Assembly: GCA_963797685.1 (NCBI GenBank)
Contig: CAWCQK010000017.1
Span: 129,652 to 193,651 of the forward strand
Source: an uncultured Chloroflexia bacterium
Lineage (GTDB): Bacteria > Chloroflexota > Limnocylindria > Limnocylindrales > CSP1-4
DNA length: 64,000 nt
Reading direction: 5' to 3'
In this document: one piece after another, positions 40,989 through 47,622 of the stretch
How the letters are laid out: every line of letters starts with the position of its first letter
How positions within the stretch are numbered: the stretch's first letter is position 1
Notes under the pieces: generated by a model
Seen by the model: the letters and a program-made list of their open reading frames with translations, nothing else
Database searches by the model: none
What the model was told of the DNA's origin: nothing
Program-made: the position numbers and the translations under genes

Positions 40989-42407
40989 TCAGATCGCGAT
41001 CTCGATGGCCTCCCAGCCTTGGTTGCCGTGACCGCCGGCGTACCCATCGTTCAGGATCGTCCGGTCGTTGATCTCGATGTACACCAGGTAGCAGCACGGC
41101 ACGATGAGCGGGTCGCTCCACGGGTCCCACACGAACGAGGTGGGCACGGGATAGCCCTGTTCGGCGGTGTTGCCGCCGTAGGTCTTCGAGAGAGGGACGA
41201 CCGCCCCGCCCGGGTAGAGCGGCAACGGGACGCCACTCACCGGGACCGACAGGCCGGAGTTGCCCCGAGCCGTCACCGCGACCCCGCTCAGGTTCGGGTC
41301 GTAGGCATGGACGGTGACCCGGATCAGCCCGTCGCCACGCTTGACCTTCGCGCATTTCAGCAATTCGGTGGTCCCGTCGGGCTTCTGGAGCTCCAACGTG
41401 ATCGTCGGTCGCGGCAGCGGGAACGGACCCGAGTTGTCGACCCGAACAGGCTGCGGCCCGCTCACCCGCGTGATCGAGCCATCGCGCACACGGAGCCGGA
41501 CGTAATACAGGCCGTCTGCCGACGGCGTCGGCCAGTGGACGAGGACCTTCTCGCCGACCGTATTCGGACCGCCGTCCGAGTCGCAGATCTGCGAGACATC
41601 GAACCAGCCCGGGTCGACCCCGGTCGAGGTGCTCCGGCTGCATGGCGCGAGCCATGGGAAGGACGAGATCGTGTTGTAACCCGATGTCGAGCCGACGAAC
41701 GGGAGATACGTCCCGCTCGGTCCGGTCGACGAGACCTCGACCAGGTACTGGGTCGCCGACGGCATGTTGAAGATGCCGCGCAGCTCGGCGTAGTCACCGA
41801 AAGGGTGATCACCGATCCCTGCCGCCGGGTTCGGGGAGGGGGTGTGACCCGGTCCGACGCTGGGACCGTTGCCAAGTCCCAGGGCGTCGATCTGGCTGAT
41901 CGGGATGTCGCCGACCCGCGTGATGAGCGGTCGCGGCGGGCAGAGCTTGCGGCAGACCTTCCGACAGCGCGCCGAGCAGAAGAAGCGACACAGCTGATGA
42001 CAGAAGCGTTCGAGCTCGAGCTTCTTGATCGTCTGGTTCCAGGCCTTCGCGTCGCCAGCCGCCTGGATCTCGAGCAGGCGCTTGACCGTGTCGGGCTTCG
42101 CCACGAGCGCGGCCAGCGCGTGGGCGAAGTCGATCATCTCCTCGACGCCGACCGGTTCCTTCGGTGGCTCGGGGCAGAAGCTCAGGCAGACGCCGCCACA
42201 GCGCTTCTCACAGAAGTAGCCGCAGATCACCTCGCAGCGCTCGGACAGCCCCGCCTGATCAAGGGCGGCCTCGAACGCCGCCCCGTCCTCCGCCTCGTAG
42301 GCCTCGAAGGCCTTGCGGAACGTCGCCGGGTCCTTGGCGAGCTGCTCCGCGGCTTCCGCGATGCTCCTCAGTTCGTCGATCGGCTCGTCACCGGACAGGG
42401 TCGCCAT
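40989..42407 (-). CDS. hypothetical 472-aa protein with two (C-x3)5-C-P cysteine ladders and a large beta-rich C-terminal region
   Basis: AAGGAG SD 5 nt before the ATG at 42407. No signal peptide. CEVICGYFCEKRCGGVCLSFCP and CHQLCRFFCSARCRKVCRKLCP are each flanked by Ala/Glu/Lys-rich helical segments. The C-terminal 300 aa are Gly/Pro/Ser/Thr/Val-rich and non-repetitive. Confidence 0.75.
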   Translation of the reverse strand: MATLSGDEPIDELRSIAEAAEQLAKDPATFRKAFEAYEAEDGAAFEAALDQAGLSERCEVICGYFCEKRCGGVCLSFCPEPPKEPVGVEEMIDFAHALAALVAKPDTVKRLLEIQAAGDAKAWNQTIKKLELERFCHQLCRFFCSARCRKVCRKLCPPRPLITRVGDIPISQIDALGLGNGPSVGPGHTPSPNPAAGIGDHPFGDYAELRGIFNMPSATQYLVEVSSTGPSGTYLPFVGSTSGYNTISSFPWLAPCSRSTSTGVDPGWFDVSQICDSDGGPNTVGEKVLVHWPTPSADGLYYVRLRVRDGSITRVSGPQPVRVDNSGPFPLPRPTITLELQKPDGTTELLKCAKVKRGDGLIRVTVHAYDPNLSGVAVTARGNSGLSVPVSGVPLPLYPGGAVVPLSKTYGGNTAEQGYPVPTSFVWDPWSDPLIVPCCYLVYIEINDRTILNDGYAGGHGNQGWEAIEIAI

Positions 42408-42436
42408 CGCGTCTCCTTCGCCGAGCGGCTGGTCAC

Positions 42437-42509
42437 ATATCCACGCTCGACGGAACGGTAGGCACCCGCACTCACGGACCCGTCACCGGCCCGTCACGCA
42501 TCCATCACG
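42437..42509 (-). promoter_or_regulatory. array of 11-nt-phased GGTGACG-like heptamers (putative SARP boxes) upstream of the 472-aa gene
   Basis: Plus-strand heptamers ACTCACG (42470), CGTCACC (42481), CGTCACG (42492) and CATCACG (42503) are spaced exactly 11 nt apart. A promoter-proximal TGGATATGTGAC element lies at 42431-42443. The ATG is at 42407. Confidence 0.55.
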
Positions 42510-42518
42510 TCGTCGGGT

Positions 42519-46610: not shown

Positions 46611-46631
46611 CGCGGGGCCCGCAGCACCGGA

Positions 46632-47471
46632 TCAGGTCCGGACGGCCTTCGCCGAGCCGGCCCCGAGCCCGTCGATGAGGGCCTCCATCTGCGGCGACGG
46701 CTCGAGACCCAGCTCATCGCGCATGATCTCGCGGTAGGCCCGATACCTCGCCACCGCCTCGTGCACGTTGCCCTCGGCGAGGTAGATCTTGATGAGGACC
46801 CGCTGAGCGCTCTCGCGCATCGGGTCGTCGGCGACCACCGCCAGGCTGACCTCGACGGCACGACCATAGCGGCCCTCCTCGGCCAGGCGGACGCCCAGCT
46901 GCTCGAGGGCGTGGAGCCGGATCTGTCGGAACCGTTCGCGGTGGGGCGCGACCCAGTCGTCGTCCCATTCCGGCAGGAGCTCGCCCGCGTCGGTCAGCTC
47001 GGCCAGGCGATCGTCATTCGCCTCGAAGGGCGCGTCGAGGAACCGCCTCGCGAGCTCGGTCAGGTCCCGGACGTCGACCGCGACCGTGCCGCCGAGCTCG
47101 ATCTCGTCCGACGAGCCGTCGAGCAGCAGCCGACCGGGCTGGCGCAATCGCCACAGGGCGGTCCGGAGCCGCGCCATCGCGCGCGGTTCGGCGGTGTCCG
47201 GCCAGAGCCGGCCGGCCAGACGGGACCTGGCCGCCGGCCTCTCGGCGAGGGCAAGGCAGGCGAGCAGCCGCTGCTCGGCTCGGGGCAGATGGACGCGCTG
47301 GCCATCGACCGACAGATGGAAGCCGCCCAGCAGCCGAAGTGTGCTGTCCGTCGTTCGCCCGGAAGCGTCGTCAGCCGGCGGCCGGGCTGTCACAGGCGAG
47401 TCCGTTGGCAGCGGAGCCCCGGAATCCGCGCCACGTCGGTTCATCGCGTCCCCCTGTTGTGGCAGCCCCAC
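46632..47471 (-). CDS. SARP-family regulator (OmpR-type winged helix + BTAD domain)
   Basis: LRLLGGFHLSVDGQRVHLPRAEQRLLACLAL...ARLRTALWRLRQ (wHTH) followed by LLPEWDDDWVAPHRERFRQIRLHALEQL...RVLIKIYLAEGNVHEAVARYRAYREIMRDELGLEPSPQM (BTAD). Confidence 0.85.
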   Translation of the reverse strand: MGLPQQGDAMNRRGADSGAPLPTDSPVTARPPADDASGRTTDSTLRLLGGFHLSVDGQRVHLPRAEQRLLACLALAERPAARSRLAGRLWPDTAEPRAMARLRTALWRLRQPGRLLLDGSSDEIELGGTVAVDVRDLTELARRFLDAPFEANDDRLAELTDAGELLPEWDDDWVAPHRERFRQIRLHALEQLGVRLAEEGRYGRAVEVSLAVVADDPMRESAQRVLIKIYLAEGNVHEAVARYRAYREIMRDELGLEPSPQMEALIDGLGAGSAKAVRT

Positions 47472-47534
47472 AGTACGGCCGATGGGGCCACCAAGCCACC
47501 AGAAAATGGTCCCAGGGACCTTCGGATGGCCGAT

Positions 47535-47622
47535 GTGGCGAACTCGTGGCGAAGCGGTGGCGAAGCCGTGACTCGGTCGTGATGGAGACGGTGACGATGC
47601 GGTGACGAGGGCCCGGTGACGG
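47535..47622 (+). repeat. eight tandem GTGRCG-type heptamers at about 11-nt period, opposite orientation to the other two arrays
   Basis: GTGGC/GTGAC cores start at 47535, 47546, 47557, 47568, 47579, 47591, 47602 and 47616 (spacings 11, 11, 11, 11, 12, 11, 14). They lie in the 159-nt gap between the permease stop and the SARP start. Confidence 0.75.

Follow-up and report, generated by a model that had tools for sequence, protein, structure and literature searches.

A probable three-gene RiPP-type cassette from a Chloroflexota genome with a predicted split kinase, lyase and cyclase route to thioether crosslinks

The classes of lanthipeptide synthetases are defined by the organisation of dehydration and cyclisation. 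In the class IV LanL enzymes (VenL, SgbL, CuvL), a fused N-terminal lyase of about 200 aa (residues 1-212 in VenL) is followed in the same polypeptide by a Ser/Thr kinase domain and by a LanC domain with a zinc site, and the presumed chemistry involves phosphorylation, elimination by the OspF-fold lyase and zinc-assisted Cys addition. Leader recognition in this class was described as RRE-independent, and the zinc ligands of SgbL are Cys-Cys-His. The class III LanKC enzymes present a kinase-then-cyclase order with a fused lyase and a cyclase devoid of zinc ligands, and their leaders carry a helical motif. ProcM-type class II enzymes (the 'CCG' subgroup) reportedly have a three-Cys zinc site (C...C-C-G) and act on many diverse substrates; dehydration is performed by a LanM lipid-kinase-like domain (DUF4135), without a separate lyase or an RRE, and the leaders are of the Nif11 or NHLP type. 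In the class V LanK/LanY systems (LxmKY, CaoKY), as in the thioamitide TvaC/TvaD proteins, the HopA1-fold lyase stands alone and the kinase is encoded alongside it; the class V kinase is a free APH-type LanK, and LanY is defined by the Pfam family HopA1 (PF17914). Class V pathways are described in PMC11186320 as having no LanC cyclase, and Streptococcus LanKCb enzymes were called class VI in a review.

The window, meaning the whole 64 kb stretch of DNA analysed here, belongs to a Limnocylindrales-like Chloroflexota metagenome-assembled genome (MAG), and five genes of its minus strand run in the same direction between positions 40989 and 47471. From upstream to downstream, they encode a SARP-type transcriptional activator of 279 aa (46632-47471), a 121-aa putative precursor protein (46106-46471), a 392-aa protein with a predicted lyase fold (44905-46083), a 792-aa RRE-kinase-LanC fusion (42519-44897) and a 472-aa Cys-ladder protein (40989-42407), separated by gaps of 160, 22, 7 and 111 nt, respectively. 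Shine-Dalgarno sites were found 5' of the 121-aa gene (GAGGAGG) and of the 472-aa gene (AAGGAG). The layout described in an earlier note on this DNA, with its tight spacing of 7 and 22 nt, its Shine-Dalgarno sites and its 8-Cys and ladder proteins, was thus confirmed in the sequence.

The same note had treated the five genes as one set, but the conserved unit comprises three genes, namely those for the precursor, the lyase and the RRE-kinase-LanC protein, and only these travel together. This was observed by searching 84 sources (the window and the fetched loci), which included 81 non-duplicate loci with the lyase-fold protein: the kinase-LanC gene was directly 3' of the lyase gene in 75 of these 81 loci, and in 72 the lyase gene was immediately preceded by a co-directional gene for a precursor homologue. 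The note had asked for synteny in other genomes, and for the core this was borne out in more than 70 of them. Across the loci compared, no other gene family was found to be conserved around the cassette, including any protease or transporter/exporter family. The cassette loci were distributed among Chloroflexota, Actinomycetota, Acidobacteriota, Nitrospirota, Pseudomonadota, Bacillota, Cyanobacteria, Planctomycetota and Gemmatimonadota, and the cassette is shared by hundreds of genomes, which represent eight phyla or more. At 50% identity, the family falls into about 1,500 clusters; its members come from no fewer than 286 species and eight phyla, and it is most strongly represented in soil Acidobacteriota, Chloroflexota and Solirubrobacterales, of which few have been cultured.

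The 792-aa protein starts with a domain of approximately 100 residues (44598-44897) that was undetectable by HMM, and for which the RRE-like (PqqD-like) assignment made earlier could be upheld only by searching its AlphaFold2 model (pLDDT 88) with Foldseek. The predicted structure is a three-stranded sheet followed by three helices (strands at residues 14-17, 36-39 and 48-50; helices at 52-62, 67-77 and 82-98), and its top matches included RiPP proteins with a leader-binding RRE, namely TigE, MibB, TbiB1 with bound leader (TM 0.69), PqqD (TM 0.63), ThcOx, TbtB and McbB. The E-values of these matches were weak (2e-3 to 0.8), and Rickettsia PKMT methyltransferases occupied ranks 8-17 with similar scores. 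The model supports the presence of an N-terminal RRE fold in this protein. It is followed by a Hanks-type Ser/Thr kinase domain (approximately residues 122-400; 43698-44534; Pfam Pkinase, E = 3e-14), in which Pkinase outscored APH (53 versus 45 bits), and K155, H247-x-D249-x-H-x-x-N254, D267-F-G and P290-E291 were each kept in at least 73 of 74 orthologues. The C-terminal LanC-type cyclase domain (approximately residues 430-792; 42519-43610; Pfam LANC_like, E = 3.5e-18) kept D542, H612, W671-C672 and C716-C717-G718, each in at least 70 of 74 orthologues, which supports a putative Cys-Cys-Cys ('CCG') zinc site. The best NCBIfam model for the whole protein was LanL, with a score of 180.4 bits where the curated equivalog cut-off stands at 650, and its alignment covered model positions 186-807 from residue 122 onwards, so the lyase part is absent from the 792-aa protein; LanKC reached 89 bits, its cut-off being 575. 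The orthologues are named by NCBI only as 'lanthionine synthetase LanC family protein'. Among solved structures, the kinase domain was nearest to StkP and PknB, both regulatory kinases, and the LanC domain was nearest by sequence to the eukaryotic LanCL1, a glutathione S-transferase that adds glutathione to dehydroamino acids and does not cyclise them.

The HopA1-like assignment of the 392-aa protein followed a similar course. No Pfam match at E <= 0.1, including HopA1 (PF17914), and no NCBIfam match were obtained, and a profile search of PDB sequences revealed no sequence-level match to HopA1 or LxmY. However, Foldseek searches with its AlphaFold2 model (pLDDT 90) retrieved HopA1 (4rsx, E = 3e-7) and, as the third-best match, LxmY (9dk3_B, E = 1.6e-5), both with a probability of 1.0; SpvC/OspF was matched as well, as were the lyase domains within CuvL, ThurKC and SalKC. 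Moreover, K223-L-Y225, K254, R264-P-D-K267 and Y271 were invariant in 108 homologues. The model supports a stand-alone protein with the phosphoSer/Thr-lyase fold of HopA1, LanY (LxmY) and OspF. Fold searches upheld the lyase and LanC assignments alike, and profile checks for BTAD, Pkinase and LANC_like in Pfam and NCBIfam all matched.

It had been stated that no leader-core precursor was evident at the locus. This view was overturned by the 121-aa protein, which represents at this locus a large family of precursor-like proteins whose flanks are conserved and whose core is hypervariable. The family was recognised by an iterated HMM in 77 of the 84 sources and by its position, and Pfam and NCBIfam contain no model for it. 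The protein has a GTG start, with MPDFEARKLRVQFP as its N-terminal motif and LGVLREQLEAQLKEVVAAQEVVAKQAKSSK as its C-terminal amphipathic helix, on either side of a core of about 77 aa that contains all 8 Cys and 15 Ser/Thr residues. The same organisation was observed in the family, with an N-terminal motif of about 14 aa (consensus F-x-x-K/R-x-L-R/M-V/I; F in 67 and L in 62 of 68 sequences), a hypervariable Cys/Thr/Ser/Gly/Pro core (median 79 aa, maximum above 150 aa) and a Cys-free amphipathic C-terminal helix, the conserved tails measuring 15-65 aa and holding 3 Cys altogether over 73 sequences. The cores contained 11% T, 10.5% C, 10% G, 9% P and 6.6% S (Ser+Thr 17.7%); Ser+Thr equalled or exceeded Cys in 73 of 73 cores, and the Cys and Ser/Thr counts co-varied within the same core. 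Precursor length ranged from 60 to 250 aa (median 127 aa), tandem paralogous genes occurred, and internal repeats such as CTPSPPD or CTGCSNC were found; a Bacillus precursor comprised three tandem motif-core-tail modules. The window precursor and a homologue from a distant Limnocylindrales locus (L008) were similar over their whole length (E = 2e-44). The family thus adjoins modifying enzymes, carries conserved recognition sequences and presents a hypervariable core rich in modifiable residues, as RiPP precursors do, and neither a defined leader cleavage site nor a protease or transporter family conserved across the loci was found. The Bacillus island also holds a lineage-specific caspase-like peptidase (Peptidase_C14).

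In actinomycete antibiotic clusters, small SARPs composed of a winged helix and a BTAD domain are encoded beside promoters with 11-nt heptamer repeats, of which the heptamer is TCGAGxx. The window regulator (GTG start at 47471, alternative ATG at 47444) has the same composition, with BTAD (Pfam, E = 1.3e-18), a weak Trans_reg_C match over residues 57-111 (E = 0.075) and AfsR/SARP in NCBIfam (E = 4e-8), although its host is a Chloroflexota member and its presumed heptamer is GTGACGG. Four GTGACGG-like direct repeats with an 11-nt period, on the minus strand, precede both Cys-rich genes, at 46570-46609 (array 1, 5' of the precursor gene) and 42469-42508 (array 2, 5' of the 472-aa gene). The exact two-heptamer pattern had no further occurrence in the 64 kb, and with up to 2 mismatches 10 matches were found versus 2.5 +/- 1.7 in shuffled sequences, none of 100 shuffles reaching 10. 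Array 1 was kept in the related loci L004 and L005 and array 2 in L004-L007, and in L005 array 2 was duplicated and other genes had been inserted under the duplicate, which suggests a regulon of varied cargo. These arrays are presumed to be SARP binding sites. The earlier view that the two Cys-rich genes are linked by the regulator gene and by common heptamers in the same phasing held. A SARP homologue was found in only 13 of the 84 sources searched.

Taken as a whole, these data make it fairly probable that the three genes form a RiPP-type cassette producing thioether (lanthionine-type) crosslinks by a split kinase/lyase/cyclase route. In the route that we infer, the 121-aa protein would be the substrate, and the RRE-fold domain of the 792-aa enzyme would bind its N-terminal motif in the form of a strand. 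Ser/Thr residues of the Cys/Ser/Thr-rich core would be phosphorylated by the Hanks-type kinase domain, the phosphate would be eliminated by the separate 392-aa HopA1/LanY-fold protein to leave dehydroalanine or dehydrobutyrine, and core Cys would be added to these residues by the Cys3-zinc LanC domain, generating multiple rings. The Cys-free C-terminal helix may serve as a second recognition, docking or oligomerisation element, and the product may be a trimmed peptide or an intact small protein. In this lineage, the SARP would activate the operon and, separately, the 472-aa gene through the identical GTGACGG arrays. Some observations weigh against this reading: precursors with a median of 127 aa are unusual for a secreted peptide natural product, the cassette has no conserved protease or exporter, LanCL1 is the nearest solved structure of the LanC domain, the lyase was assigned from a predicted fold and the Foldseek E-values of the RRE-like domain are weak.

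Alternatively, the protein of about 120 aa, modified by the same enzymes, would stay whole as a thioether-stapled 'lanthiprotein' whose tail mediates oligomerisation or surface association, perhaps as a SapB-like morphogen or surfactant. The long cores, the conserved amphipathic tails, the full-length conservation between the window and L008 precursors and the lack of a protease or transporter conserved with the cassette are in its favour. However, class III and IV pathways often lack clustered proteases too, a hypervariable core between conserved flanks is the signature of released RiPPs, and the three-module Bacillus precursor and the caspase-like peptidase of the same island suggest proteolytic release, so that we consider an intact product unlikely, if still deserving some weight. 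It is much less plausible that the genes constitute a signalling or stress system, in which the kinase would phosphorylate a Cys-rich redox or metal sensor, the lyase would irreversibly convert its phospho-sites to dehydroamino acids and the LanC domain would cap these with a small thiol. Such a system would agree with the proximity of the two enzyme domains to LanCL1 and to StkP and PknB, and with the lack of export or processing machinery, but an enzyme-fused RRE-fold domain is typical of RiPP maturation, the hypervariable, repeat-prone core and the tandem paralogues of the partner are unlike a conserved sensor, and its Cys and Ser/Thr numbers co-vary in one core.

The least credible alternative, to which we give hardly any weight, is that the kinase-LanC and lyase proteins act on the 472-aa protein as a second or main substrate, in line with the earlier idea of protein thioethers. 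Its gene lies directly 3' of the kinase-LanC gene under the common SARP-type array, and an Actinomycetes MAG (L056) also has the five-gene set, ladder protein included, at 40-49% identity. Nevertheless, a 472-aa homologue was present within 10 kb of the lyase gene in only 7 of the 84 sources (the window, L004-L007, L064 and L056), and the members of this family sampled elsewhere were orphan genes without a nearby kinase-LanC gene in 8 of 8 contexts. The protein contains two (C-x3)5-C-P ladders, CEVICGYFCEKRCGGVCLSFCP and CHQLCRFFCSARCRKVCRKLCP, followed by a conserved, beta-rich C-terminal part; in a 13-member alignment, all 12 ladder Cys were invariant and had no conserved Ser/Thr partners. 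Since it is an orphan elsewhere and such partners are lacking, it is unlikely to be a dedicated substrate; it also has neither the N-terminal motif nor the tail that characterise the precursors, and the genes inserted under the duplicate array in L005 point to a regulon of varied cargo. The 472-aa protein is thus probably co-regulated cargo here and not the substrate of the cassette.

The reading of a RiPP-type cassette agrees with the earlier description of a split, non-canonical lanthipeptide-type machinery, with RRE fold, kinase and zinc-site LanC in one protein and a stand-alone HopA1/LanY-fold protein. That the architecture matches no described class was also sustained, since it fits none of classes I-V, nor, judging by one sentence of a review, the LanKCb enzymes called class VI, and no description of it was found in the searchable literature, Pfam or NCBIfam. 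The kinase-zinc LanC order and the presumed chemistry are common to class IV, but the cassette enzyme has a predicted RRE-fold domain of about 100 aa in place of the fused lyase, which is encoded by a separate gene; it falls far below the LanL cut-off, the zinc-ligand His of SgbL is replaced by Cys in 70 of 74 orthologues, and, unlike class IV, the precursors are 60-250 aa long and carry a recognition motif at either end. The stand-alone lyase recalls class V, but the 392-aa protein lacks the Pfam match that defines LanY and, as judged from the motifs, keeps Lys in K-x-Y where LanY reportedly has Arg, and its partner kinase is Hanks-type and fused to LanC. The cassette has in common with class III the kinase-then-cyclase order, the lyase fold and, in the amphipathic helix of its substrate, a feature reminiscent of the helical leader motif, whereas its lyase is separate and its LanC domain has zinc-site Cys. 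The ProcM-type enzymes resemble it in the three-Cys site and in substrate diversity, and differ from it in dehydratase, lyase, RRE and leader type.

It is evenly balanced, in our judgement, whether the triad represents a new class-level lanthipeptide architecture, with RRE-dependent capture, a Hanks kinase fused to a Cys3-zinc LanC, a very divergent HopA1-fold lyase acting in trans and protein-sized precursors with recognition elements on both sides. Such a cassette would mix three hallmarks, namely the RRE recognition of class I, the kinase-zinc LanC fusion of class IV and the trans HopA1-fold lyase of class V, and would act on unusually long substrates flanked at both ends. The lyase and the precursor are both without an HMM, which is why the family has gone uncurated. 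The lyase family and the N-terminal F-x-x-K/R-x-L motif would provide a simple handle for genome mining. The cassette would also bring into reach hundreds of gene clusters, as yet unmined, from soil phyla that are hard to grow, and a natural experiment on the fusion and splitting of lyase, kinase and cyclase modules in evolution. Apart from the cassette, the 472-aa Cys-ladder family, with more than 300 homologues at 53-63% identity across phyla, is a separate widespread family that merits its own attention. An FtsX ABC pair in the window was noticed as a lineage-specific export candidate.

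Five minus-strand genes were examined in this GC-rich window (~70%), encoding the SARP regulator E (46632..47471, 279 aa), protein D (46106..46471, 121 aa with 8 Cys, starting at GTG and preceded by GAGGAGG), protein C (44905..46083, 392 aa), protein B (42519..44897, 792 aa counted from the ATG at 44897), and protein A (40989..42407, 472 aa, preceded by AAGGAG). They are separated by gaps of 160 nt (E/D), 22 nt (D/C), 7 nt (C/B), and 111 nt (B/A), and the ORFs, gaps, cysteine counts, cysteine ladders, and repeats that an earlier note had described from the sequence were all present. 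The nearest public relative was a soil Chloroflexota MAG (CAWEYB010000001.1, 'uncultured Chloroflexia'), with 98% identity over protein C. A tRNA-Thr (CGT) at 40858-40932, directly downstream of A, marks the edge of the region, and past it lie sugar-metabolism genes (a Zn-ADH, an FGGY kinase, and an enolase-superfamily protein). A scan for sigma-70 promoters gave no match in the region.

Protein C, a 'hypothetical protein' in NCBI, was found to have more than 600 homologues in 90% clusters, all of them named hypothetical. A C profile search over 1.84 billion representatives returned 1,558 clusters at E <= 1e-3, 1,072 of which reached 1e-30, and the best 150 of the 1,558 were stand-alone proteins of about 290-475 aa. 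A motif-limited scan with one genome per species found C in 286 species, and the 80 fetched loci included Chloroflexota, many Acidobacteriota, Nitrospira, Ralstonia, Ruegeria, Bacillus, Cyanobacteria, Planctomycetota, and Gemmatimonadota, as well as Actinomycetota (Solirubrobacterales, Conexibacter, Micromonospora, Kribbella, Actinomadura, Nocardia, and Streptomyces). A B orthologue was placed directly downstream of C, on the same strand, in 75 of 81 non-duplicate loci, the exceptions being mostly contig ends, together with one convergent case and locus L026, and a D-family gene was found just upstream of C in 72 of the 81, in one to three copies. All-against-all clustering of the neighbouring ORFs revealed no further widely shared family, the SARP gene being limited to about 10-13 loci and A to 7. 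Since D, C, and B co-occur and no other family is widely shared, the conserved unit is D-C-B; the synteny expected across genomes thus held for these three genes, but not for the five that the earlier note had joined in one cluster. On chromosome 3 of Ralstonia pickettii (L029), the kinase-LanC gene was convergent and not co-directional.

In the earlier note, no short leader-core precursor had been evident in the cluster. However, iterated HMM searches of the loci recovered 95 D-family ORFs in 77 of 84 sources (the window plus fetched loci), which share an architecture of N-terminal motif, hypervariable core, and tail. The motif runs from the initiator Met as M-[ASP]-F-x-x-[KR]-x-L-[RM]-[VI]-x-[LVI]-[PL], with F in 67 and L in 62 of 68 sequences. 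The core has a median length of 79 aa and includes T at 11.1%, C at 10.5%, G at 10.3%, P at 9.0%, and S at 6.6%, with medians of 7 Cys and 14 Ser+Thr; Ser+Thr equalled or exceeded Cys in all 73 cores, and internal repeats such as CTPSPPD, CTGCSNC, and GCYASGG were frequent. The tail (median 33 aa) has a high content of L, E, A, K, and Q, carries the motif L-x-x-L-[KR]-x-Q-L, and included only 3 Cys across 73 sequences. The core of D in the window contains 8 Cys and 15 Ser/Thr. Conserved flanks around a hypervariable Cys/Ser/Thr core give the family the signature of RiPP precursors, in which the core is placed between putative recognition elements, and on these sequence features D is a member of a RiPP-type precursor family. 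D and eight diverse family members were not recognised by Pfam or NCBIfam (June 2026).

The precursor genes also varied in number and context. The locus of Bacillus sp. Xin1 (L078, 4580-13221) harbored one precursor with three tandem motif-core-tail modules, and its cassette lies inside an island flanked by IS240-family transposases, in the order precursor, lyase, kinase-LanC, three-module precursor, unknown 518-aa protein, and caspase-like Peptidase_C14; the precursors there carry a tail-like helix ahead of the first N-terminal motif. Three tandem precursor paralogues were found in some Actinomycetota loci (L014, 8583-9974, which shares a contig with L001, and L013, 8619-9976), with the same flanks and very different cores, one of them having a divergent, shorter tail. 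One sub-group of precursors (L029, L067, L059, and L040), whose sources are a proteobacterium, Nocardia, Streptomyces, and a cyanobacterial MAG, presented the near-identical core motif 'CDAGCSDSPQSAxCPPPPP...CGVPSNF', which suggests horizontal transfer of the cassette.

Protein B, which NCBI names only 'lanthionine synthetase LanC family protein', matched Pkinase and LANC_like, as had been anticipated from the sequence. Its best NCBIfam model was class IV LanL, with a score of 180 bits where the cut-off is 650, and the alignment starts at model position 186, so that B is devoid of the LanL lyase part, which in VenL corresponds to residues 1-212. Among 74 orthologues taken from the fetched loci, the kinase residues Lys155, H247-x-D-x-H-x-x-N254, D267-F-G, and P-E291 and the LanC residues Asp542, His612, Trp671-Cys672, and Cys716-Cys717-Gly718 were each kept in at least 70. 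The conservation of Cys716-Cys717-Gly718 points to Cys as the third zinc ligand of B (a 'CCG' site). Such a site is also found in the substrate-tolerant ProcM group. In class IV enzymes, in contrast, the third ligand is His, as in SgbL (C769, C814, and H815).

The N-terminus of B (residues 1-135) was modelled with AlphaFold2 from an 87-sequence alignment (pLDDT 88), giving a topology of three strands and three helices. In Foldseek, the top-ranked matches were the RRE-bearing RiPP proteins TigE, MibB, TbiB1, PqqD, ThcOx, TbtB, lasso B1, McbB, MadB, and SuiB, with TM scores of 0.69 to TbiB1 with bound leader and 0.63 to PqqD; E-values were weak (2e-3 and upward), and Rickettsia PKMT methyltransferases scored similarly, at ranks 8-17. 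This predicted RRE-like domain would distinguish B from the class II-IV synthetases, which have been described as RRE-independent, and kinases are never mentioned in a structure-based RRE census from 2025.

For protein C, no match was obtained in Pfam or NCBIfam, even at E = 0.1, and a 108-sequence profile compared with all PDB sequences returned noise only (E > 0.2). Its AlphaFold2 model (pLDDT 90.2, pTM 0.88), however, resembled HopA1 (4rsx, E = 3e-7, and 4rsw), the class V lyase LxmY of the LxmKY complex (9dk3_B, E = 1.6e-5), the phosphothreonine lyases SpvC, OspF, and VirA, and the lyase domains of the class IV enzyme CuvL and the class III enzymes ThurKC, SalKC, and PneKC, all with Foldseek probability 1.0. 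Invariant residues of the family (K223-L-Y225, K254, R264-P-D-K267, and Y271) form a putative catalytic-type basic set such as HopA1/LxmY/OspF-type lyases employ. The lyase assignment stands at the fold level, since only the fold search gave matches. The names 'HopA1-like' and 'RRE-like', proposed earlier, were thus supported by predicted folds only, as no HMM matched for either and C had no sequence-level match.

In the pathway proposed from these features, the N-terminal motif of D would dock on the RRE-like domain of B, whose kinase would phosphorylate Ser/Thr residues iteratively; C, acting in trans and probably complexed with B by analogy with LanK-LanY, would then eliminate the phosphate, and the LanC domain would add Cys with the assistance of zinc. 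Although this proposed chemistry is common to classes III, IV, and V, the cassette does not present the defining features of any of them: the lack of a fused lyase rules out classes III and IV, the zinc ligands of its LanC domain also rule out class III, and a LanC domain together with a Hanks-type kinase rules out class V, C also giving no PF17914 match, though its predicted fold does resemble LxmY. The label 'class VI' has been given to the Streptococcus LanKCb enzymes, from which the cassette seems to differ as far as these are described in a review. The literature outside subscription-only papers yielded no account of an RRE-kinase-LanC enzyme whose lyase is separate; if its chemistry is confirmed, the cassette potentially represents a new lanthipeptide class. 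The enzyme logic first read from the sequence was retained, but the unit and the substrate had to be corrected.

The correction of the substrate concerns protein A, whose ladders (CEVICGYFCEKRCGGVCLSFCP and CHQLCRFFCSARCRKVCRKLCP) had made it a candidate for modification by the lyase and the kinase-LanC protein. Over its full length, A is 53-63% identical to more than 300 homologues, whose hosts include Acidobacteriota, Bacteroidota (Mucilaginibacter), and Thermoleophilia. In a 13-member alignment, all 12 ladder Cys and much of the C-terminal part were invariant, and the ladders contained no conserved Ser/Thr. All eight members sampled elsewhere (L084-L091) were lone genes that had neither a kinase-LanC nor a lyase gene within 7-8 kb, and A is without D-family flanks. 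On the other side, an Actinomycetes MAG (L056) retains the D-C-B-A set with SARP, at 40-49% identity, and A and D have a heptamer promoter in common, both of which count against the complete independence of A, as does the arrangement in L005 described below. Altogether, A is probably co-regulated and not a substrate, and its modification by the cassette enzymes appears very improbable.

In the N-terminus of A, a unit made up of a helical segment and then (C-x3)5-C is duplicated in tandem; one may speculate about metal binding by paired Cys-lined helices, or about a disulfide zipper between them. A likeness of these helices to Nif11 leaders had no tool support and is not claimed. No relatives of A were found in Pfam, NCBIfam, PADLOC, or PDB sequences (profile against PDB, noise), Pfam searches with A and its N-terminal 153 aa at E <= 10 gave noise only (HTH_29, D27-like), and PF27846, listed for a few A homologues, was absent from the Pfam copy searched. 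The family is large, strongly conserved, and unannotated, with no solved or curated relative.

The co-regulation of A draws on the heptamer arrays, found by pattern search and a custom script; a general repeat search did not output them because the units are too short. On the minus strand, GTGACGG-tcgc-GTGGCGA-cgcg-GTGACGG-gtcg-GTGACGG lies upstream of D (46609..46570) and GTGATGG-atgc-GTGACGG-gccg-GTGACGG-gtcc-GTGAGTG upstream of A (42508..42469). The exact dimer GTGACGG-N4-GTGACGG occurs at only these two sites in 64 kb, and with up to two mismatches it gave 10 matches against 2.5 +/- 1.7 in shuffles, none of 100 shuffles reaching 10. Both arrays, which the earlier note had rightly reported as shared, were kept in the related loci L004-L007. 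Classic SARP operators consist of heptamers at 11-bp phasing. E matched BTAD (Pfam, E = 1.3e-18) and, weakly, an OmpR-type winged helix, and it is reasonable to infer that it co-regulates D-C-B and A. In the close relative L005 (13575-16455), two unrelated genes and a duplicated heptamer array were inserted between B and A, an arrangement suggestive of a SARP regulon whose cargo is interchangeable. The inserted genes encode a Pro/Gly/Thr-rich 234-aa protein and a ~570-aa protein with repeated 'WHMWQTAPSNGWSGWYSLGGWID' units, and the kinase-LanC ORF of this locus is split in two pieces.

Upstream of E lie an FtsX-type ABC permease of 809 aa (47631-50060, minus), its ATPase (50057-50887, minus), and, divergent from the pair, a HisKA_3 histidine kinase (50902-52125, plus), which are conserved beside the cassette in only 6 loci, those of the closest relatives. 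This layout recalls peptide-antibiotic sensing/export modules, and these genes could have a role in export or immunity. A reading as anti-phage defence was dropped, PADLOC having returned generic kinase matches only. Between the permease stop and the SARP start (47530-47625, minus-strand reading), two more phased repeat sets were observed, one of 3-4 CGTCACC units, the reverse complement of GTGACGG in inverted orientation, and one of three TTCGCCAC units with an 11-nt period, which may serve SARP autoregulation or be the site of a second regulator. They are followed at 47508-47520 by a terminator-like hairpin (GGTCCCTGGGACC, then ATTTTCT).
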